In this document: piece by piece, positions 14,007 to 61,998 of the stretch
Layout: the number at the start of each line of letters is the position of its first letter
Numbering within the stretch: position 1 is the stretch's first letter
NCBI GenBank assembly: GCA_041660565.1
Contig: JBAZWC010000001.1
Location: forward strand, 430,481 to 494,480
Direction of reading: 5' to 3'
DNA: 64,000 nt
From: Patescibacteria group bacterium
Lineage (GTDB): Bacteria > Patescibacteriota > UBA1384 > CAJBMM01
The notes under the pieces: generated by a model
What the model was told of the DNA's origin: nothing
The model's input: only the letters and a program-made list of their open reading frames with translations
Database searches by the model: none
Made by a program: the position numbers and the translations under genes

Positions 14007-14909
14007 ATGCCAAATGGTCCTGCAGCTGTGGGGGTAGTCGTTGCCCGATTTCAAGTGCCCGAGCTTACCCTCGGTCATCAAGCTCTGATTGAATTCGTAG
14101 AAAGCCAAGTCAAGCAAGTCTTGCTCGTACTCGGCACATCGGAAGCCTTTGCCACCAGCCGCAATCCCCTCAGCTTTGCCGCTAGACGGGAGATGGTTCT
14201 GGCATCGTACCCCAATGTCAAGGTGGTCAGTCTGGCTGATCACCCATCCGATTCCGTCTGGTCCACTAACCTGGATCAACTGATCAAAAAGATGTTCCCG
14301 GACCAGTCGGTTTCCCTCTACGGGTCGCGCGATTCCTTTCTAACCACCTACTCCGGCACCCTGCCTGTGGTTGACTTTCCCGCCTTACCTTGCCTGTCTG
14401 GAACCGAGAACCGTGTCGCCCTTCTAGACAACCCACCAACCAGCCCCGATTTCCGCAAGGGGATTGTCTACAGCCAAGTCGCCCGAGCCGGGATCCCCTA
14501 CGCCACTGTTGATATAGCAATCGTCGATGAGAACAAGGGGCTCGTTCTCTTGGGTGGCAAGCCAACTGACGGAGACCGCTATCGTTTCATCGGCGGTTTC
14601 GTTGATGTTAACGATGAATCCCTGGAACGAGCCGCAAAACGCGAGGCTTACGAAGAAACCGGCGGTCTCGAGATAGACGATCTCCGCTACTTCGGATCAG
14701 CGAAGGTCGTTGATTGGCGCTACCAAGGAACCGGCGATGGAATCTTGACTAGCTTCTTCGCCGCAACCTACATTTTCGGTTGCGCAAAGGCCCAGGACGA
14801 CATCGCACGAGTGAAATGGGTACCGATCAAGGAAGTCAAGCAGTACCTCGTCCCGGAACATCAGATTCTGGGCAGCATGCTCCTCAAACAGCACCATCTG
14901 ACACGATAA
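14007..14909 (+). CDS. nadM: bifunctional NMN adenylyltransferase / Nudix (ADP-ribose) pyrophosphatase, NadM-Nudix type
   Basis: N-terminal nucleotidyltransferase motif (ARFQ..ELTLGH). C-terminal Nudix box GGFVDVNDESLERAAKREAYEETGG. GC-rich. Confidence 0.8.
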   Translation: MPNGPAAVGVVVARFQVPELTLGHQALIEFVESQVKQVLLVLGTSEAFATSRNPLSFAARREMVLASYPNVKVVSLADHPSDSVWSTNLDQLIKKMFPDQSVSLYGSRDSFLTTYSGTLPVVDFPALPCLSGTENRVALLDNPPTSPDFRKGIVYSQVARAGIPYATVDIAIVDENKGLVLLGGKPTDGDRYRFIGGFVDVNDESLERAAKREAYEETGGLEIDDLRYFGSAKVVDWRYQGTGDGILTSFFAATYIFGCAKAQDDIARVKWVPIKEVKQYLVPEHQILGSMLLKQHHLTR

Positions 14910-14924
14910 GAAAGGGAGACGACC

Positions 14925-16313
14925 ATGTCTGACAACATCATCCTCCTCACCGACAGCTACAAGCCAACCCACGGCCCCCAGTACCCGCCACGCACCCAGA
15001 CTATCTTCTCGTTCTACGAGAGCCGGGGCGGCCTTTTCCCTGAGACCACCTTCTTTGGCCTCCAGTACCTGATCAAGCGATATCTGCTCGGTCAAGTGGT
15101 GACCGAGGAGAAGATCGAGGAAGCCTATGAAGTTCTGGGGAGCCACTTCGGCAACTCGAATTACATGAACCGGGCTGGCTGGGAATACATCCTGAAGGCA
15201 CACGGTGGACGGTTGCCAATCCTCATCCGGGCCATACCGGAGGGGACATCGATCCCAAACCACAACGTCCTCATGACGGTGCAGAACACCGACCCCAACG
15301 GCCTGCCATGGCTCACCAACTACCTGGAGACTCTGCTCTGCCAGGTCTGGTACCCCTGCACGGTCGCCACCCAGAGCCGGGCCATGCGCCAGGAGATCCT
15401 CCGCTTCCTCGAGGAAACGGGCGATCCCAGCCAAATCGACTTCAAGCTGCATGACTTCGGTTTCCGGGGTTCCACCAGCGTGGAGTCAGCTGGTATCGGC
15501 GGGGCGGCCCACTTGGTCAACTTCAAGGGGACTGACACCCTCGAAGCCATCATGGTCGCCCGTCGTTACTACGGCGAGAACATGGCCGGCTACTCGATCC
15601 CAGCCGCCGAGCACAGCACCATCACATCCTGGGGCAAAGAGCACGAGGCTGACGCTTACGCCAACATGCTCACGGCCTACCCCACCGGCACCGTAGCCGT
15701 AGTCTCGGACAGCTACGACGTATTCAACGCTTGTCGCTCCATCTGGGGTGGACAGCTCAAGGAGCGCGTTCTGGCCCGAGACGGCGTCCTCGTCATTCGC
15801 CCCGACAGCGGTAACCCCCCGGAAGTGGTCACCCAGGTCCTCGATATTCTCGGGCAGACCTTCGGCTTCACCACCAACGACAAGCAGTACAGGGTACTGC
15901 ACCCAAAGGTCCGGGTCATTCAGGGCGACGGCATCGACTACGCCATGATCACCCAGATCCTGACCGCTATGCGGCAGGCGGGATGGTCAGCTGATAATCT
16001 CGCCTTCGGCTCCGGCGGCGGTCTGCTCCAGAAGGTCAACCGAGACACCCAGCGTTTCGCCTTCAAGTGCTCAGCCGCTCAGATCGACGGAACCTGGCGC
16101 GATGTGATGAAGGACCCTGTCACTGATCCCGGCAAGCGTTCCAAGGCGGGCCATCTGGCCCTTGTACGCAACAGCGCCGGCGACTGGAAGACCATGCGCG
16201 AGTCAGACGCCGAAGCCATGGGATTCTCCAACCAACTAGTCCCTGTCTTCAAAGACGGCGCCCTATTGGTTGATTACAACTTCCAGTCCATTCGAGATCG
16301 CGCCGCGATGTAA
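14925..16313 (+). CDS. nadV: nicotinamide phosphoribosyltransferase (NAMPT/NadV)
   Basis: LLTDSYKPTH signature and full-length similarity to NadV. GC-rich. Starts 16 nt after the nadM stop. Confidence 0.85.
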   Translation: MSDNIILLTDSYKPTHGPQYPPRTQTIFSFYESRGGLFPETTFFGLQYLIKRYLLGQVVTEEKIEEAYEVLGSHFGNSNYMNRAGWEYILKAHGGRLPILIRAIPEGTSIPNHNVLMTVQNTDPNGLPWLTNYLETLLCQVWYPCTVATQSRAMRQEILRFLEETGDPSQIDFKLHDFGFRGSTSVESAGIGGAAHLVNFKGTDTLEAIMVARRYYGENMAGYSIPAAEHSTITSWGKEHEADAYANMLTAYPTGTVAVVSDSYDVFNACRSIWGGQLKERVLARDGVLVIRPDSGNPPEVVTQVLDILGQTFGFTTNDKQYRVLHPKVRVIQGDGIDYAMITQILTAMRQAGWSADNLAFGSGGGLLQKVNRDTQRFAFKCSAAQIDGTWRDVMKDPVTDPGKRSKAGHLALVRNSAGDWKTMRESDAEAMGFSNQLVPVFKDGALLVDYNFQSIRDRAAM

Positions 16314-25769: not shown

Positions 25770-25842
25770 ATTTACCCCGTTCTGCGGGGTTAGTATTACT
25801 ATAACACATTTGGAGGATAGAAAATAGAGGGGATCACGACCT

Positions 25843-25910
25843 GTCATCCCCGCCCCGCTAAGCGGGGCTAAGGAACGCTTAGCGTCCCGACATTTTATTC
25901 GGGGATCCAG
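25843..25910. repeat. GTCATCCC/ACGCTTAGCGTCCC hairpin module
   Basis: CCCCGCcccgctaaGCGGGG and the ACGCTTAGCGT palindrome. The related GGGACGCTAAGCGTCCC recurs at 30775-30810. Confidence 0.5.
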
Positions 25911-25933
25911 AAAAAAACCTAGAAGTATTTTTC

Positions 25934-26020
25934 ATAGACTGCCCCGAAGTAAGTTCGGGATGGCTGGCGCCAGATTCCCACCGAAGTCTACCCCGAGCTT
26001 TGCCTCGGGGCGGGAATGAC
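25934..26020. repeat. 87-bp repeat, left copy (inverted relative to 30161-30248)
   Basis: atagactgccccgaag..cgggatggctggcgccagattccc..ctaccccgagctttgcctcggggcgggaatgac. Its reverse complement is about 90% identical to 30161-30248. Confidence 0.8.
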
Positions 26021-26029
26021 AACCTGCTC

Positions 26030-26057
26030 TTGACTCACACCACTGTTTTTGCCATAA
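26030..26057 (+). promoter_or_regulatory. sigma70-type promoter TTGACT-17-CATAAT
   Basis: ttgactcacaccactgtttttgccataat. The downstream leader ggcgttgatcttgaacaactt is shared with the unit starting at 26752. Confidence 0.6.
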
Positions 26058-26063
26058 TCGAGG

Positions 26064-26640
26064 TGTTAAGACGCATAGGGCGTTGATCTTGAACAACTTG
26101 CCCCATCGCAACCGTGGATACTGCTTACCTCTCGGAAGCGATGGCATCTCCTGCAAAAGTATTCAAGGAAGCCCTGTGCGCGTCGCCCCCACTCCCGAGC
26201 CCGGTCAAATGGGGCTCAAGTCCCGTTCAAAAAACGGAGAAGCGTATGAAGCAGTTCGTCGCCTAACCTATCAGCGGGGTGGTCTCGGCAACACGCACCT
26301 GTTGGATAGGTTGCGCGCCCGGACCATTAGATGTCCACTCTCGGTCGGCGTTGAGCGGATTAGATACCCGCTTCAGGTCGACCACGTCTGTTAGGATGTC
26401 GTTGTTTGTTGAACAGAGGCGCGGTGGGTGGGCGAACCCACCTCGCCTCTGGCCTCATCGTCACACATCATCCGCCAGCCGCGCAGGAAACCGCGCATCC
26501 AGCCCCACCTTTCTTCCTACATCCCTTTAAGCGAGGTTCGCCTCGTGTCCCAAGTCGCGCCCCCTCCCAGCCCGGGAGTGGGGCGCTTCTCATTTCCGTC
26601 GCCTTTTCACACCTCCGAGGTGTTTGCCGTTGCCACGGTT
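26064..26640 (+). ncRNA. candidate large GC-rich non-coding transcript, unit 1 (about 0.6 kb)
   Basis: About 62% GC. No ORF above 110 aa, and the small ORFs overlap in all frames. Strong promoter. Ends near the hairpin CACCTCCGAGGTG. Confidence 0.4.
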
Positions 26641-26704
26641 TCACCTCTGAGGAGTGAAATGTCTCTGTCCTCCGTCATCAGTCATCTGTTTTCCGACAGG
26701 GGTA

Positions 26705-26732
26705 TTGACAACCATTTTTATTCTGCTATAAT
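26705..26732 (+). promoter_or_regulatory. consensus sigma70 promoter TTGACA-16-TATAAT
   Basis: ttgacaaccatttttattctgctataat, followed by the leader ggcgttgaccttgaacaact. Confidence 0.7.
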
Positions 26733-26738
26733 GGATCA

Positions 26739-27874
26739 TGTACGCCGATAAAGGCGTTGACCTTGAACAACTGAAAATCCATATCCTCGTCCGGTTAGAG
26801 TCTGGTTAAACCGGCTTGTGGACAGGGTCCACCAGTGGTTCGGGATTGACGCCTTTTCGGCGTTTTGACAAGTTATTAGTCGTTTTTGCCCTAAAATCCA
26901 GCACGTCGAAAGGAAGCACGTCCATGAGGGTGCACGAGCCGTTCGTGAACTTGGAGAAGAACATATGCACGTTCGACGGCAGCACCGGCAACTCGATCAG
27001 CCCGGACGCCGGCCTCAGCGCGTGACCGCCTCCGGCGCCGCCTAGGCCACGGGCCTCGGCGCGCCCAACACGGCGCGTAGCGTGGTGCACGGGGCGCGGT
27101 GCGGCGAGGAGCGTCCTCCCCACCGCGCGCCCGTGGTCTCACAGCTGTTATCTTCCTTGAAGGGAGGCGTCGAGATGAGAGTCGCGACGTCGGGATTCAC
27201 CTAGCGGAAGCTAGGTCGGCCTACCCCGCGGTGTTCGGGCCAACCGGTTGGCAGAGGCACACCCTCTCGCCGGCTGGCGACACTGTGGGTCACTCCCTCC
27301 CCCGGCAGATCCGCCGGGAAAGGAGACACCCCCATGAACCTGCACCAAACCCTGGCCGCCATCAACGGCGGAGGGTAGCACGCGCTCGGCGGTTCGCGTC
27401 TGAGAGTCCGGGTACACCCCGGTTAAGATGAGGGGATCCGACACATAACGCGGATCGTGATCTAGTCGCACCTGTGAGAGTAAGAAGCTGTCCGTGGGCG
27501 GCTAACCCACGGAGCGCATCGATGGAATCTGCGCGAGCAGCGTCGCTGGCATAGGCCGGCGGTCATCTCTGCCGCAAAGCAGGTTCCGTCCTCGGGGCGG
27601 GCGTCGCACAGAGGGCCGTGATTCACTGGCCCCGTATGACACGCCTGGCCCGTCGCGACGCGGAGGGGAACTCGGCTGAACCAACCCCCTCCGCCTCGCC
27701 GTACGAAGTACAAACCGGCGCGTAGCGCGCCACACTACCAAATCGATCCTGGGCGGGACTCCTTCTCGCCCAACATGCCCGCAGCTTTGCATCCTGCGAC
27801 CATGGCTCGGCCGCTTCCCATCATCGGGGGGCGGCCGTTCTACTTTTTATACACCTTTTAGAGGTGTTTTTTTG
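26739..27874 (+). ncRNA. candidate large GC-rich non-coding transcript, unit 2 (about 1.1 kb, roughly 67% GC)
   Basis: Only short overlapping ORFs in all six frames. Two internal small ORFs carry strong SDs (gaaaggaag..ATG, 33 aa; aaaggaga..ATG MNLHQTLAAINGGG). Double terminator: GGCCGC..GCGGCC plus T-run, then ACACCTtttaGAGGTGT plus T7 (27852-27874). Confidence 0.4.
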
Positions 27875-27925
27875 ATTGAAAGAACGTAGCCCAAGCTTCT
27901 TGAACGTGAATTGGGAAACTATAAT

Positions 27926-28074
27926 GTCATTTCGACCCTAGGAGATTGTCAAATCGACTATGTTGGAGAAATCTGAGAAAGAATCCCTTCCCGTCTTTTC
28001 TTGAGATTTCTCCACCCTCGAGACAACGCTCGAGGCTCTGCCCGTAGGCTACGCCCGGAGGGAGTCGAAATGAC
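27926..28074. repeat. ~150-bp composite hairpin of the GTCATTTCGAC subfamily
   Basis: gtcatttcgaccct...agggagtcgaaatgac outer stem. Inner pair ggagaaatctgagaaagaa / ttcttgagatttctcc. Related to 55843-55908 and 56091-56137. Confidence 0.7.
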
Positions 28075-28167
28075 AGATTGTGGTCGATGGTTTGCAACAC
28101 ATAAGATGATCTAGTATTTTTGTTAAAAACGTCTTAGAATAATAATCGACAACATAAAGGAGTTTAT

Positions 28168-57303: not shown

Positions 57304-57379
57304 ATGGCTGGGGAGGAGGGACTCGAACCCCCGAATGCCAGGACCAAAACCTGGTGCCTTACCACTTGGCGACTCCCCA
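57304..57379 (-). tRNA. tRNA-Gln (anticodon TTG)
   Basis: The reverse complement reads TGGGGAGTCGCCAAGTGGTAAGGCACCAGGttttggtCCTGGCATTCGGGGGTTCGAGTCCCTCCTCCCCAGCCA. Confidence 0.8.
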
Positions 57380-57437
57380 ATTAGTTATATCCTACCACAA
57401 AATCATATTCTAAGCAATCATAATCGGCAATTATTTA

Positions 57438-57465
57438 TTGCAAATTGTCTCTTTTCTGATAGAAT
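57438..57465 (+). promoter_or_regulatory. promoter TTGCAA-16-TAGAAT, copy 1 of a duplicated about 45-bp promoter module
   Basis: ttgcaaattgtctcttttctgatagaataatgacatcaca. A near-identical copy lies at 57743-57785. Confidence 0.6.
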
Positions 57466-57495
57466 AATGACATCACATGTACGGAGGCACGACGA

Positions 57496-57690
57496 ATGCC
57501 AGGTCAAACCGGTCTTACCTTCGACGAGCTTGTGCACGCGCTGATTTCCGCTTCCATTGCACTCGGCAAGATGGAAAAGCAACACCAGATTCGCCATACC
57601 CCACCCGACGAGACGGAACGTTTGCTCGCGCCACTTCGTTCTCGAGTAGAAGAGATCCGAAACGAAATCGTGTGCGCACATTATGCGTGA
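57496..57690 (+). CDS. small helical protein, paralog 1 (64 aa, GC-rich)
   Basis: MPGQTGLTFDELVHALISASIALGKMEKQH.. Its own promoter and terminator are duplicated around the next gene. Confidence 0.5.
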   Translation: MPGQTGLTFDELVHALISASIALGKMEKQHQIRHTPPDETERLLAPLRSRVEEIRNEIVCAHYA

Positions 57691-57709
57691 ACCGGACATC
57701 ATCATGCCA

Positions 57710-57741
57710 CGCCGCGGGTCAAGACAGACCGCGGCTTTTTT
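57710..57741 (+). terminator. intrinsic terminator, copy 1
   Basis: GCCGCGGgtcaagacagaCCGCGGC plus T7. Confidence 0.7.
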
Positions 57742-57742
57742 T

Positions 57743-57771
57743 GTTGCAAATTGTCTATTTTCTGATACAAT
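57743..57771 (+). promoter_or_regulatory. promoter TTGCAA-17-TACAAT, copy 2
   Basis: ttgcaaattgtctattttctgatacaataatggcatcaca. Confidence 0.6.
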
Positions 57772-57801
57772 AATGGCATCACAGCGACACAGAGGTGTGC
57801 C

Positions 57802-57996
57802 ATGAACGTAACACGGATGAGTGCAGCTCAGTTGGTGGACAGCCTCATCGACAAGACGGCTGAGCTCACAGAACTACGCCACGACAAGGACGTAACTTCA
57901 GTGGCAGCTAGGAATGCTCAGGACATTTGCACAGCCGAGCGAGACCAGTGCCGCGCTGAGATTCTCCGGCGGCTTGGAGCCAAGAAAGCCGAGTAG
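57802..57996 (+). CDS. small helical protein, paralog 2 (64 aa, GC-rich)
   Basis: MNVTRMSAAQLVDSLIDKTAELTELRHDKD.. The L-V-x-[AS]-L-I register is shared with paralog 1. Confidence 0.5.
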   Translation: MNVTRMSAAQLVDSLIDKTAELTELRHDKDVTSVAARNAQDICTAERDQCRAEILRRLGAKKAE

Positions 57997-58030
57997 CCCG
58001 CCATCCCCACCACCTCACCCTCCCCACCAC

Positions 58031-58065
58031 GCCGCGGGTCAAGACCGACCGCGGCTATTTATTTT
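58031..58065 (+). terminator. intrinsic terminator, copy 2
   Basis: GCCGCGGgtcaagaccgaCCGCGGC followed by tatttatttt. Confidence 0.65.
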
Positions 58066-58678
58066 GGGAATACGACTGAATTACTTTAACAATCGCCTCG
58101 TGAACTTCATCAACAGTCCCAGATGCATCAACCACCTTTATTCGATCAGGATTATTTTTTGCCAAATCCAAATACGCCTGACGAATTTTTTGATGAAATT
58201 CTAAACCCTCTTTTTCAAAACGATTCTGATCTTCTTGCCGCGACAACCCGATCTTTGGGTCAATGTCTAACAATATCGTCAAATCTGGTTTGATATTACC
58301 AGTGGCAAATAGATTCAGATTATTCACCTCTCCAAGTTCAATCCCGCGAACATATCCTTGATACACCGCGGATGAATCGATAAATCGATCACAAATAACC
58401 ACAGAACCTTTGTGTAAATGCGGCTTGATTAGTTTCTCACAAACTTGCGACCTAGACGCTAAAAATAGAAGCAGTTCGGCGTTGGTCGTTAGTGGTGACG
58501 GTGGATCTAAAATAATCTGGCGAATTTTTTCGGCTGTCTCTTCACCACCTGGCTCTCGCAGGGTAAAAACATCATGCTTAGCCTCGGTTAACCACTCGGC
58601 GAGCAATTTTACTTGCGTCGATTTACCGGTGCCTTCGCCACCCTCAAAAGTAATAAAAATGCCGTTTAGATTTGCCAT
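58055..58678 (-). CDS. tmk: thymidylate kinase
   Basis: FITFEGGEGTGKSTQ P-loop, DR(F/Y) motif, lid region. Confidence 0.9.
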   Translation of the reverse strand: MANLNGIFITFEGGEGTGKSTQVKLLAEWLTEAKHDVFTLREPGGEETAEKIRQIILDPPSPLTTNAELLLFLASRSQVCEKLIKPHLHKGSVVICDRFIDSSAVYQGYVRGIELGEVNNLNLFATGNIKPDLTILLDIDPKIGLSRQEDQNRFEKEGLEFHQKIRQAYLDLAKNNPDRIKVVDASGTVDEVHEAIVKVIQSYSQNK

Positions 58679-58687
58679 TCGATTATC

Positions 58688-60217
58688 CTATCGTAATGTA
58701 AAATGTTTATCCACAATCAACGGTTTGTCTTGATTATACGGAATGTTTAATTGCAGAGCCAGCTCGGCTTTAATTAACTCTAGCGTTATATCCACATAAT
58801 GATCACCGCGCGACAGTAAATTACGTTTGGCTAAACGTAGCGCAATTTCACGCGCTTTTGTGCCAATTTCTTCGGCAATTTCGGTACCTGACAAACTAAT
58901 TAGCTTTAAGATGATTTTGCCACCATCAACCTGTATTCGCACAATTCCACGTGGATCTAAATCTGCAGACTCATCAAATTGCGCTTTCACCCGCCCGCGC
59001 AACGCACAATCCACCAACTTTTTGGCATTCTCCCAATCTTCTTCGTACATATGCGCGGAGTGCGAGGTGATGGCCAAAGATCCAATTGGCAAATTAGTCT
59101 CTTCGGCAACGTATTTTTGTAAATTTAGCAGCGCAAAAGCGTTGGGTAACGCCGCCTTAAAGATATCATGTGATCTGAATGTGGCGATTAAGTTTAGTTT
59201 ACCTTCAACGGTCGTCAAAAACTGAATCAAGCACAAACACGGTGGTGAGTGATGTTTCATATCAAACGGCGGGTACAACGTGGTGCCAAAAGCGCGGCGA
59301 GTGATAGGTGATGATTTTAGATGACGTACAATCTCATCAACTTGATCTAAATCACCCGGGTAATTGCGCAAACGGCTCCCATAGGTGTACACCGTGCCCT
59401 CGGGCAGCTTTGCATCCAAAAACGCCGTGGCGTATTCTTTAAGCATATCTTTGTGCATCCCAACTGCTTTCAACAGCTCCTCCGGCCAATCCGGAATAGC
59501 AAACTTGGCTAAATCTTCTTGATGAATCACCCAAGTAACCACCTGCAACTCTTTCTGCAAATTGCCATATTCGGTTTTTTTGATGCCACCGTAAAGCAAA
59601 ATGCGATCAACCACCTGCGCCCATGCGCCAGCCAGAGTAGGATGATGCACTGCAAACCCAATTTCTTCCGATGGCGCCGAGGCGTCAACATCGCGCTTGG
59701 TTTCGGGAAAAGAAGTGGGCTTCATATATGGCTTAGTGTCTGAGGTTAGATTTTTCACTTTGGAGATCATTTTGTCGTAGTCTAGGTCAGATAAATCGAG
59801 CAATTTAACATTTTGGCGCACTTTTTCTAACACGTCCGGATCAATTTCAGGATGCAGCCTGTCTGATGTTCCGTTTACTAGGTTATCTTTGCCTATGCTA
59901 CTATCGAAAAAAGTTTTGAGTAAATTGCGGCCGGCAATGCCAAATTGAGTGTTTGATAGTGGCGCGTTGCCCCAAACCACCATCGTTTTAATGGTTGGAT
60001 TCAAGCACAAATTACGCAAAATCACCGAAACGCCTTCTTTGCTGTAAAGCGTACCCATCAGCCCAATGTGCTTGGTAATGGTCGGATCTTTTTTGAGCAG
60101 CAAATTTGGGTCGGACCAACACGTTGCCAAACCAACCGAGGCGTTTTCACCGGTCACCACCGGATATTTTTCAGGTAAATAAAGTTGGTATTTCATTAAA
60201 TCCCTTGTTCGAATCAA
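58688..60217 (-). CDS. thymidylate-synthase-fold protein (ThyA-like C-terminal domain) with an about 250-aa N-terminal extension
   Basis: The C-terminal half aligns with the ThyA core: SPPCLCLIQF....GKLNLIATFRSHDIF...PNAFALLNLQKYVAE...SLAITSHSAHMYE. The N-terminal half has no recognisable motif. Lies in an operon with tmk. Confidence 0.6.
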   Translation of the reverse strand: MIRTRDLMKYQLYLPEKYPVVTGENASVGLATCWSDPNLLLKKDPTITKHIGLMGTLYSKEGVSVILRNLCLNPTIKTMVVWGNAPLSNTQFGIAGRNLLKTFFDSSIGKDNLVNGTSDRLHPEIDPDVLEKVRQNVKLLDLSDLDYDKMISKVKNLTSDTKPYMKPTSFPETKRDVDASAPSEEIGFAVHHPTLAGAWAQVVDRILLYGGIKKTEYGNLQKELQVVTWVIHQEDLAKFAIPDWPEELLKAVGMHKDMLKEYATAFLDAKLPEGTVYTYGSRLRNYPGDLDQVDEIVRHLKSSPITRRAFGTTLYPPFDMKHHSPPCLCLIQFLTTVEGKLNLIATFRSHDIFKAALPNAFALLNLQKYVAEETNLPIGSLAITSHSAHMYEEDWENAKKLVDCALRGRVKAQFDESADLDPRGIVRIQVDGGKIILKLISLSGTEIAEEIGTKAREIALRLAKRNLLSRGDHYVDITLELIKAELALQLNIPYNQDKPLIVDKHFTLR

Positions 60218-61011: not shown

Positions 61012-61350
61012 TCACGCCTCGCAAGTCGCGTCAGAAGCAGCCTTGGTCTCCGTCTTGAGCAATGCCAAACACATCTTTGTGAACTCGTCACGGATGTCCG
61101 CAGGCATATTCCACGGTCTATCACCGAGCGTCTTGAGCACGCTCGAGACATACTCGGCCGCGAACTTGCGCATCTCGTCGAAAGACATAGCCAGCACCGC
61201 TAGGAGCTGCATGTCGGCGACGAAAGATCCCCATACCTCACCCCATTCCACGGCATTAGAAGGAGTGAGAGCCGGAATGATCGCGAAGTAAATGTTGATC
61301 TTTGCCGTCAGCTTAACCTTGATCGAAGCCACGTCCATCATAGTGTCCAT
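61012..61350 (-). CDS. hypothetical protein (GC-rich)
   Basis: 112-aa ORF of roughly 55% GC. Confidence 0.35.
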   Translation of the reverse strand: MDTMMDVASIKVKLTAKINIYFAIIPALTPSNAVEWGEVWGSFVADMQLLAVLAMSFDEMRKFAAEYVSSVLKTLGDRPWNMPADIRDEFTKMCLALLKTETKAASDATCEA

Positions 61351-61503: not shown

Positions 61504-61998
61504 GTAGTCTAAATCTTTTCGGATCATCGCCCCTAACGGGGAGGAAAGTCCGGGCACCTGATAAGCGTTGTACTGACGCATCTGCTAGCATTAGTTAGCA
61601 GCGAAGTCTAGCTGCCCCGTCATTCGACAGGGCAAGGGAATAGTGCAACAGAAAATACACAGCCAGCCAATGCGTTGCATTGGAAATTCGAAATTCTAAA
61701 TTCCAATTTATAAACATAAGGAAATTTGTTTATAGGCTGGATTCCCGCCTGCGCGGGAATGACGCCTCGAGTTTCTAGTGCAGCGCGTCGGGGGCAAAGG
61801 TGAAAACGTGTGGTAAGAGCGCACGCGCTTTAGCAGCAATGCTAATTTGTGAAAACCCTGCATGGTGCAAGTCTGGTGGACCATTCGCTTCAATTGTGCT
61901 TATCCAAGAAGCGGGTTTGGCCCAGACGCGTAGATAGATGATGGTCAAGTATTTGTTTACAAATACTACAGAACCCGGCTTATAGAAACGGTTTAGAC
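61504..61998 (+). ncRNA. rnpB: RNase P RNA (bacterial type A) with an enlarged P12 region
   Basis: Promoter -10 TATAAT at 61494-61499. P4 5' strand GGAGGAAAGTCCGGGC (61539-61554). AGTGCAACAGAAA. GGTAAGAGCGCAC (61815-61827). P4 3' strand ACAGAACCCGGCTTA (61965-61979). P1 pairing GTCTAAA/TTTAGAC. Terminator AATGACGCtgttAGCGTCATT plus T-run at 62001-62030. Confidence 0.85.
61739..61763. repeat. GTCATTCC-family hairpin inside the rnpB P12 expansion
   Basis: ggATTCCCGCctgcGCGGGAATgac, preceded by an about 55-nt AT-rich insert (aaattcgaaattctaaattccaatttataaacataaggaaatttgtttatag). Confidence 0.7.

Follow-up and report, generated by a model that had tools for sequence, protein, structure and literature searches.

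Small proteins that fold as alpha-hairpins and form four-helix bundles include the WXG100 proteins EsxA and EsxB, which are a tandem paralogous pair, and the ColE1 Rop homodimer (63 aa). Integron cassettes are arrayed short open reading frames (ORFs) with a repeated imperfect inverted repeat as the boundary of each; they are promoterless and end in attC, which is recognised by the integrase IntI, with attI nearby. Phage morons, in the outline given by an article that cites Hendrix et al. for them (PMC2920897), are genes that lie among phage genes as autonomous inserts, each with a promoter and a terminator of its own. Here we describe a locus that shares traits with all of these, found in 64,000 nucleotides of a Patescibacteria group bacterium (assembly GCA_041660565.1, contig JBAZWC010000001.1, positions 430,481 to 494,480; this whole stretch is called the window hereafter, and positions refer to it). 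Beside a tRNA-Gln gene lie two 64-codon ORFs in tandem, ORF1 and ORF2, each enclosed by its own copy of a nearly identical promoter and terminator. We read them, with a probability of roughly 0.6, as real small-protein genes, each monocistronic and complete in itself, that descend from a single promoter-gene-terminator unit duplicated in tandem. The pair look like lineage-private small helical proteins, and not like a system that is already known or mobile.

The resemblance to morons is one of architecture only and not of membership. As far as that outline of morons goes, the likeness lies in the possession by each unit of its own promoter and factor-independent terminator (from the promoter scan and the terminator folds), in the position between two genes that need no separation, and in a deviant base composition, the payloads between the shared blocks having 54% (unit 1) and 59% (unit 2) GC where the window averages 45.7%, though the window is heterogeneous (standard deviation, sd, 7% per 200 nt). 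Unlike morons, the units have no phage or prophage context, were absent from the phage records and viral contigs searched, and gave nothing significant in PHROGs. Nor, to our knowledge, are morons known to share regulatory modules, as these two units do. With EsxA/EsxB and Rop the pair has in common that small helix-turn-helix hairpins are encoded side by side with almost no mutual sequence similarity, and Rop is of nearly the same size. An Esx-type pair was nevertheless rejected: the products are 64 aa long instead of about 100 aa, contain no WXG motif and no tryptophan at all, match neither WXG100 nor Rop in Pfam at E ≤ 10, have no type VII secretion context, and their genes are not co-transcribed. 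The integron cassette was also rejected, as the inverted repeat here, a G+C hairpin with a T-run after it, is a terminator, the units have their own promoters, and no integrase was found within the approximately 7 kb scanned. A diversity-generating retroelement target, which calls for two near-identical repeats with differences mainly at template adenines, was rejected on the chance-level identity of the two payloads (25.6%).

The two units lie head to tail on the forward strand at 57438–57735 and 57744–58055, and each consists of a sigma-70 promoter with an extended −10 element, a Shine-Dalgarno sequence, a 64-codon ORF and a terminator hairpin (Table 1). The initial annotation, made from the sequence alone, had described near-identical, duplicated promoter and terminator modules around two ORFs of equal length next to tRNA-Gln, and on these points it was accurate, the promoter blocks sharing 89% identity over 47 nt and the terminator blocks 87% over 45 nt. 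In both promoters the −35 and −10 elements are 16 nt apart, and the extended −10 reads TG-n-TAGAAT in unit 1 and TG-n-TACAAT in unit 2; the inferred transcription starts lie at about 57472 and 57778, respectively. In a register plot, homology between the units stops at ...CATCACA (57477/57783), about 5 nt past the inferred start, and resumes 4 nt ahead of the hairpin (57707/58027). Each unit has a leader of about 24 nt that carries the Shine-Dalgarno sequence. Both terminator hairpins fold at −16.5 kcal/mol with z about −3.6 (−3.61 for block 1) and are followed by T-rich runs; their 9-bp G+C stem contains a bulged G, because of which a simple terminator scanner missed both. Between the units, the T-run of terminator 1 directly adjoins the −35 region of promoter 2, the kind of junction that a head-to-tail duplication should leave. 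At the right-hand end, the stop codon of the convergent tmk gene (58055–58057, reverse strand) overlaps the last base of the terminator 2 hairpin, and the T-run of terminator 2 is at the same time coding sequence for the C-terminal codons of Tmk.

The spacing of the two units is equally regular. The distances from ATG to ATG, from stop to stop and from promoter to promoter are all 306 nt, so that there has been no net insertion or deletion over leader and ORF. For the terminators the distance is 320 nt, the 3′ untranslated region (UTR) of unit 2 having 14 nt more of a C-rich stretch. Even positions with no evident role in expression agree between the units, the promoter spacer being identical at 15 of 16 positions and the terminator loop at five of six. 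Two peculiarities of the ORF2 3′ UTR have no counterpart in unit 1: a 13-nt direct repeat in or near it (58001–58013, CCATCCCCACCAC; 58018–58030, CCCTCCCCACCAC), and the motif CACCTC, which is the exact complement of its own Shine-Dalgarno, GAGGTG.

Table 1. Features of the tandem units and of the genes next to them, with positions in the 64-kb window.
Feature	Position	Strand	Description	Basis
tRNA-Gln (UUG)	57305–57379	−		ARAGORN; Rfam tRNA, 60.5 bits
Promoter block 1	57431–57477	+	repeat family D1, 47 nt, 89% identity to copy 2	promoter scan
Promoter 1 elements	57438–57443; 57457–57458; 57460–57465	+	−35 TTGCAA; TG; −10 TAGAAT	promoter scan
Shine-Dalgarno 1	57483–57487	+	GGAGG, 8 nt ahead of the ORF1 ATG	read from the sequence
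ORF1	57496–57690	+	64 aa	ORF list; NCBI MFA6082244.1
Terminator block 1	57707–57751	+	repeat family D3, 45 nt, 87% identity to block 2	
Terminator 1 make-up	57707–57745; 57711–57735 (hairpin)	+	CCAC, then hairpin GCCGCGG(G)TC / loop AAGACA / GACCGCGGC, then TTTTTTTGTT	
Promoter block 2	57737–57783	+	47-nt repeat, 89% identity to block 1	
Promoter 2 elements	57744–57749; 57766–57771	+	−35 TTGCAA; TG, then −10 TACAAT	promoter scan
Shine-Dalgarno 2	57792–57795	+	GAGG (inside GAGGTG), 6 nt ahead of the ORF2 ATG	read from the sequence
ORF2	57802–57996	+	64 aa	ORF list; called by JGI only, as 'hypothetical protein'
ORF2 3′ UTR	57997–58026	+	C-rich, 14 nt longer than the ORF1 counterpart; repeat family D6	
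Terminator block 2	58027–58071	+	45-nt repeat, 87% identity to block 1	
Terminator 2 make-up	58027–58065; 58031–58055 (hairpin)	+	loop AAGACC, stem as in unit 1, then TATTTATTTT	
tmk (dTMP kinase)	58055–58678	−		Pfam Thymidylate_kin; named dTMP kinase by both NCBI and JGI
RNase P RNA, class A	61511–61998	+	between RNase HII and uvrA	Rfam, 125.5 bits

The modules occur in these two places only. In the window, the core promoter and core terminator patterns were each found exactly twice, against 0.00 expected from shuffles, and no third copy appeared when as many as 9 substitutions were tolerated in a fuzzy search. In collections without the source contig, the promoter pattern had no match in metagenome and viral contigs, and the terminator pattern had none in genomes, metagenomes (with a relaxed pattern) or viral contigs; blastn of the cassettes against phages and plasmids returned chance matches of 27–43 nt only. 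Modules that are ubiquitous before and after unrelated genes, which the initial annotation had named, together with ORFs conserved in no relative, as the finding that would speak against it, were therefore not what these scans revealed. The cassettes were identical in an independent Logan assembly of run SRR18595301, which differed by a single-nucleotide polymorphism in 4.4 kb, at 61261. The tandem pair is therefore not an assembly artefact.

Both ORFs behave as coding sequence. A codon log-likelihood model trained on the 27 long ORFs of the window gave +8.0 bits for the annotated frame of either ORF, which was the best of the six frames; the other five were all negative (−3 to −40 bits overall, −21 to −40 for the ORF2 alternatives). 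For reference, 64-codon windows of host genes scored 17.5 ± 7.3 bits and off-frames −44.6 ± 19. The order GC1 > GC3 > GC2 was observed in both. Dinucleotide-preserving shuffles were scored for an ATG-initiated ORF of at least 60 codons that had a Shine-Dalgarno sequence and closed before the terminator: such an ORF appeared in 0.2% (unit 1) and 0.5% (unit 2) of them, and together with the observed log-likelihood in 0.02% and 0%, respectively. The payloads showed no excess RNA structure relative to shuffles (fold z-scores +0.31 and −0.33) and no gathering-level match in Rfam, where the best sub-threshold model was BcKCsr2 (21.9 bits, where the gathering score is 40). Structured RNAs are thereby disfavoured, and a known structured small RNA was rejected. 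The evidence thus favours coding over non-coding for both ORFs, in agreement with the proposal of the initial annotation that these are separately signalled small-gene cassettes. In the public record, ORF1 is deposited as 'MAG: hypothetical protein WC773_02435 [Patescibacteria group bacterium]', and ORF2 is without an NCBI annotation. The accessions of ORF1 (MFA6082244.1) and Tmk (MFA6082245.1) are consecutive, which points to a gap in the NCBI annotation at ORF2, a probably real small gene.

Similarity between the two proteins was faint. A global protein alignment gave z = 2.7 (p~0.01), and the hydropathy profiles correlated with r = 0.45 (p~0.003) at an offset of +1 only, a value reached by 0.28% of shuffles and by none of 47 rotations. 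The register L-V-x-[AS]-L-I noted in the initial annotation is present at residues 12–17 of ORF1 and 11–16 of ORF2, offset by one residue, and is not significant alone. Structure prediction, which had been proposed as a follow-up, was run with AlphaFold2 (AF2) and returned a two-helix alpha-hairpin for both peptides, with helices at residues 9–32 and 37–63 in ORF1 (predicted local distance difference test, pLDDT, 87.7) and at 8–27 and 34–63 in ORF2 (pLDDT 68.3); the predicted loop falls at the same place in both models. Equal leader and ORF lengths, the hairpin fold and collinear hydropathy lend faint support to a common plan. Equal leader and ORF lengths together with the collinear hydropathy also favour constrained descent over the capture of unrelated payloads. 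The description of the two as weak paralogs thus stood on global alignment, hydropathy, geometry and fold class and failed in BLASTP and in local and DNA alignments; that they are deep paralogs is probable but unproven.

Foldseek searches of the models against PDB and BFVD gave no match at E ≤ 0.001. The best look-alikes of the ORF1 model were Tsi2 and uL29 (template modelling, TM, score 0.71–0.75), which, like designed proteins among the matches, were non-significant (E about 1–2), and the ORF2 model had no PDB match at all. A sequence search of PDB returned noise for ORF1; for ORF2, all it gave were matches of idealised helices in de novo designed TIM barrels. Tsi2 and uL29 are like the ORF1 model in being two-helix hairpins of similar size, and the pair is unlike them in having no type VI secretion system (T6SS) or ribosomal operon context. 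ORF2 also had a sub-threshold score to Pfam Ribosomal_L29 (13.3 bits vs. a cutoff of 24.5, E = 0.086), ORF1 had no match, and BLASTP of both ORFs against an approximate Bacillus subtilis L29 sequence found nothing. On the sub-cutoff score and the empty BLASTP, uL29 paralogs were rejected.

If the pair arose as we propose, expression of each gene would start at a strong sigma-70-type promoter (TTGCAA, 16 nt, TG-n-TAnAAT) that initiates a leader of about 24 nt with a Shine-Dalgarno sequence; the 64-codon ORF would be translated, and the 9-bp G+C hairpin with its U-run would terminate the transcript. The predicted products are cytosolic 64-aa helix-loop-helix hairpins. Small hairpin proteins usually pair into dimeric four-helix bundles or clamp a partner. 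One unit would have been duplicated head to tail, after which the coding parts would have diverged past recognition while keeping start offset, length and helix layout, and the expression signals would have been held near-identical by purifying selection, by short-tract gene conversion, or by both. Given the near-identical signals, production of the two proteins would be controlled alike, and they might be a matched pair. That control is probably strong, and a heterodimer of ORF1 and ORF2 is an attractive idea.

A number of observations weigh against tandem duplication of a coding unit. The log-likelihoods of the ORFs lie about 1.3 sd under those of typical host genes. BLASTP of ORF1 against ORF2 found no match at E ≤ 100, a local Smith-Waterman alignment gave z = 0.4 (p = 0.32), the in-register DNA identity (25.6%) was at the level of shuffles (mean 25.4%), and alignments of the payload DNA had z-scores of −1.1 and 0.3. 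The helical hairpin is so common a fold that the shared architecture is weak evidence of ancestry. Neither a homolog nor the genome of a relative turned up in the databases searched. Most demanding is the conservation of neutral positions in spacer and loop beside randomised coding DNA (third codon positions are 18.5% identical, at or below chance), for which plain duplication followed by drift is insufficient. Short-tract gene conversion homogenising the flanks is one possible route; another is that some factor binds the hairpin and the whole region from −35 to +5, and that selection acts on both. That payloads were exchanged between conserved flanks seems doubtful.

Searches for relatives returned little beyond the proteins themselves. 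Both were singletons, a word-indexed search of 5.8 billion protein clusters giving self only; a full HMMER search of ORF2 against 1.84 billion representatives added to self one coiled-coil-type match (E = 3.6e-4) in a 1334-aa protein. Neither ORF had a significant match in Pfam, PHROGs, NCBIfam or PADLOC, and literature searches on run SRR18595301 and on tandem small proteins of Patescibacteria returned nothing. The neighbouring Tmk served as a measure of how well the organism is sampled. Its nearest relative was only 55% identical, the best homologs (52–55%) were all in non-syntenic contexts, and a Tmk-based search for the locus in GTDB genomes gave only matches of 44–45% identity from unrelated phyla. 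With no Tmk relative above 55%, the organism is effectively unsampled, and the absence of homologs and modules therefore carries little weight. The diversifying family put forward in the initial annotation went unsupported, as it has two members only and no homolog in the databases searched.

The pair stands among housekeeping genes. On the left, all on the reverse strand, are genes for a LytR-CpsA-Psr protein, RmuC, a LiaF-TM protein, a type IV pilin-like protein and a DUF378 protein, followed by tRNA-Gln, whose 5′ end faces the cassettes at 58 nt from the −35 element of promoter 1. On the right, again on the reverse strand, tmk is convergent with the pair and bounds it, followed by a thymidylate-synthase-like fusion, RNase HII (rnhB) and uvrA. 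With the exception of the RNase P RNA gene, the cassettes are the sole forward-strand genes in about 16 kb (approximately 48–64 kb of the window). Among the genes of about 7 kb on either side, Pfam searches revealed no integrase, transposase, phage, toxin-partner or defence gene near the pair. Judged by strand and composition, it is plausible that the cassettes are an insert. Their lower log-likelihood and higher GC fit a foreign origin or an Ala/Arg-rich composition, in a window that is patchy anyway.

A 16-mer over the ORF1 start codon (57493–57508, CGAATGCCAGGTCAAA) matches 57332–57347 at 14 of 16 positions, 11 of them contiguous, and the latter segment lies antisense to the anticodon arm and variable loop of tRNA-Gln. 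The match is probably due to chance (about 1–2% by a rough estimate); judging from the letters, ORF1 mRNA could in principle pair with the adjoining tRNA-Gln. Two of the neighbours have unusual features of their own. The thymidylate-synthase-like gene (58688–60217, reverse strand, 502–509 aa) combines Thymidylat_synt with a weak PterinBD-DUF4346 match, an unusual fusion adjoining tmk. The RNase P RNA spans 488 nt against a model of 367 positions and therefore carries sizeable insertions.

Conservation of neutral flank positions, which is troublesome for a simple duplication, would be accounted for if the blocks formed a portable expression module, serving as docking or homology arms between which unrelated or very old allelic small ORFs were swapped by recombination; the tandem pair would then stem from an unequal crossover between two alleles. 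The sharp homology boundaries with random identity inside them are in line with this, as are the payload GC above the host average and the isolation of the pair on the forward strand amid reverse-strand neighbours. A portable module should nevertheless have left more traces than two copies, and no further one turned up in the 64 kb at up to 9 mismatches or in the collections of genomes, metagenomes and viruses scanned; nearby genes include no recombinase, integrase or transposase, 45 nt is a short arm length for homologous exchange, and the equal leader length, ORF length and hairpin layout would be unexpected for unrelated payloads. We therefore consider such swapping unlikely. A more specific form of it, a lineage-specific portable chassis in which the 47-nt promoter and 45-nt terminator blocks host interchangeable, fast-evolving 64-aa hairpins, appears quite improbable; it would be a promoter-bearing counterpart of the cassette array, with more copies or alleles to be expected in the genome or population and a possible role in episymbiont-host or anti-phage conflict.

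The same divergence of coding sequence between conserved signals could be read as the mark of an arms race, and the initial annotation had accordingly suggested immunity, anti-defence or toxin-like proteins on an insert at the tRNA. An adjoining tRNA gene and a GC content above that of the neighbours agree with this, and among the many hairpins that resemble the ORF1 model is the T6SS immunity protein Tsi2 (TM 0.71–0.73, E about 2). These Foldseek matches are non-significant and generic, however, uL29 and designed proteins being among them. There was no PADLOC, Pfam, PHROG or NCBIfam match and no toxin, effector or other partner ORF, the neighbours (pilin, DUF378, tmk, thyA-like, rnhB, RNase P RNA and uvrA) being housekeeping genes, and phages and plasmids gave no match either. 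Immunity, anti-defence and toxin roles thus went unsupported, and the pair is not a recognisable toxin-antitoxin or defence component. The proposed tRNA-proximal insert, taken as a tRNA-targeted integrated island, was rejected: the pair is on the 5′ side of tRNA-Gln and not at its 3′ end, where such islands lie, there is no integrase, and no att-type repeat was found, the only tRNA-like repeat being the 14/16 match at 57493–57508. Conflict proteins on such an insert are thus very unlikely. If instead the payloads were non-coding and the units gave two small RNAs, each some 265 to 285 nt long, with accidental ORFs in G+C-rich sequence, neither the zero protein homologs nor the absence of ORF2 from the NCBI annotation would be surprising; long spurious ORFs do occur here (98 and 95 aa over unit 1, 96 aa over unit 2), and there is the weak sub-threshold BcKCsr2 score. 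Accident is, however, a poor explanation for a Shine-Dalgarno sequence, ATG, 64 codons and stop placed alike in both units, an arrangement found in so few shuffles per unit, with the annotated frame the best of six in both; the fold z-scores are near zero, and the payloads have no RNA sequence or structure in common. The chance that they are non-coding is accordingly very slim.

Elsewhere in the window, base composition varies strongly. The initial annotation had called the ORFs GC-rich, which holds relative to the window mean only, as several other stretches exceed the cassettes in GC; the strongly patchy composition weakens GC richness as a sign that the cassettes are foreign. At 14007–16313 (forward strand), a stretch of about 60–65% GC against the mean of 45.7% encodes a NUDIX protein and a NAMPT-type nicotinamide phosphoribosyltransferase (NAMPT_N + NAPRTase). 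At 25800–28150, also on the forward strand, about 2.2 kb of 58–73% GC contain no credible ORF and two units with near-consensus promoters, at 26030–26058 and 26705–26732 (TTGACA, 16 nt, TATAAT, 12/12 with TG), followed by a shared 20-nt leader (GGCGTTGAYCTTGAACAACT; 26079–26098 and 26753–26772). The first unit (26065–26700) folds at −254 kcal/mol (z = −6.4) and the second (26740–27700) at −470 kcal/mol (z = −7.4); terminator-like hairpins lie at 27808–27837 and 27851–27867. Neither unit had an Rfam match at E ≤ 1, and the two may be large structured non-coding RNAs of no known class. The region is flanked by two elements of about 150–180 nt with long inverted arms, which may be further small structured RNAs: one at 25842–26021, with arms TGTCATCCCCGCCCCG / CGGGGCGGGAATGACA (16 nt, 94% complementary), and one at approximately 27928–28075, with arms TCATTTCGAC...GTCGAAATGA. 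The window contains 13 tRNA genes.

What is unusual about the two cassettes is that conservation is far stronger in the signals than in the coding sequence, yet leader, ORF length and helix layout are exactly preserved. If our reading is right, the pattern, seen in two copies in one genome, would be a compact natural test case for either of two processes, the concerted evolution of regulatory DNA or the cassette-style exchange of small genes. If tandem duplication of one promoter-gene-terminator unit is the correct reading, the locus would add one lineage-private helical pair to the large uncharacterised pool of small proteins of the Patescibacteria.

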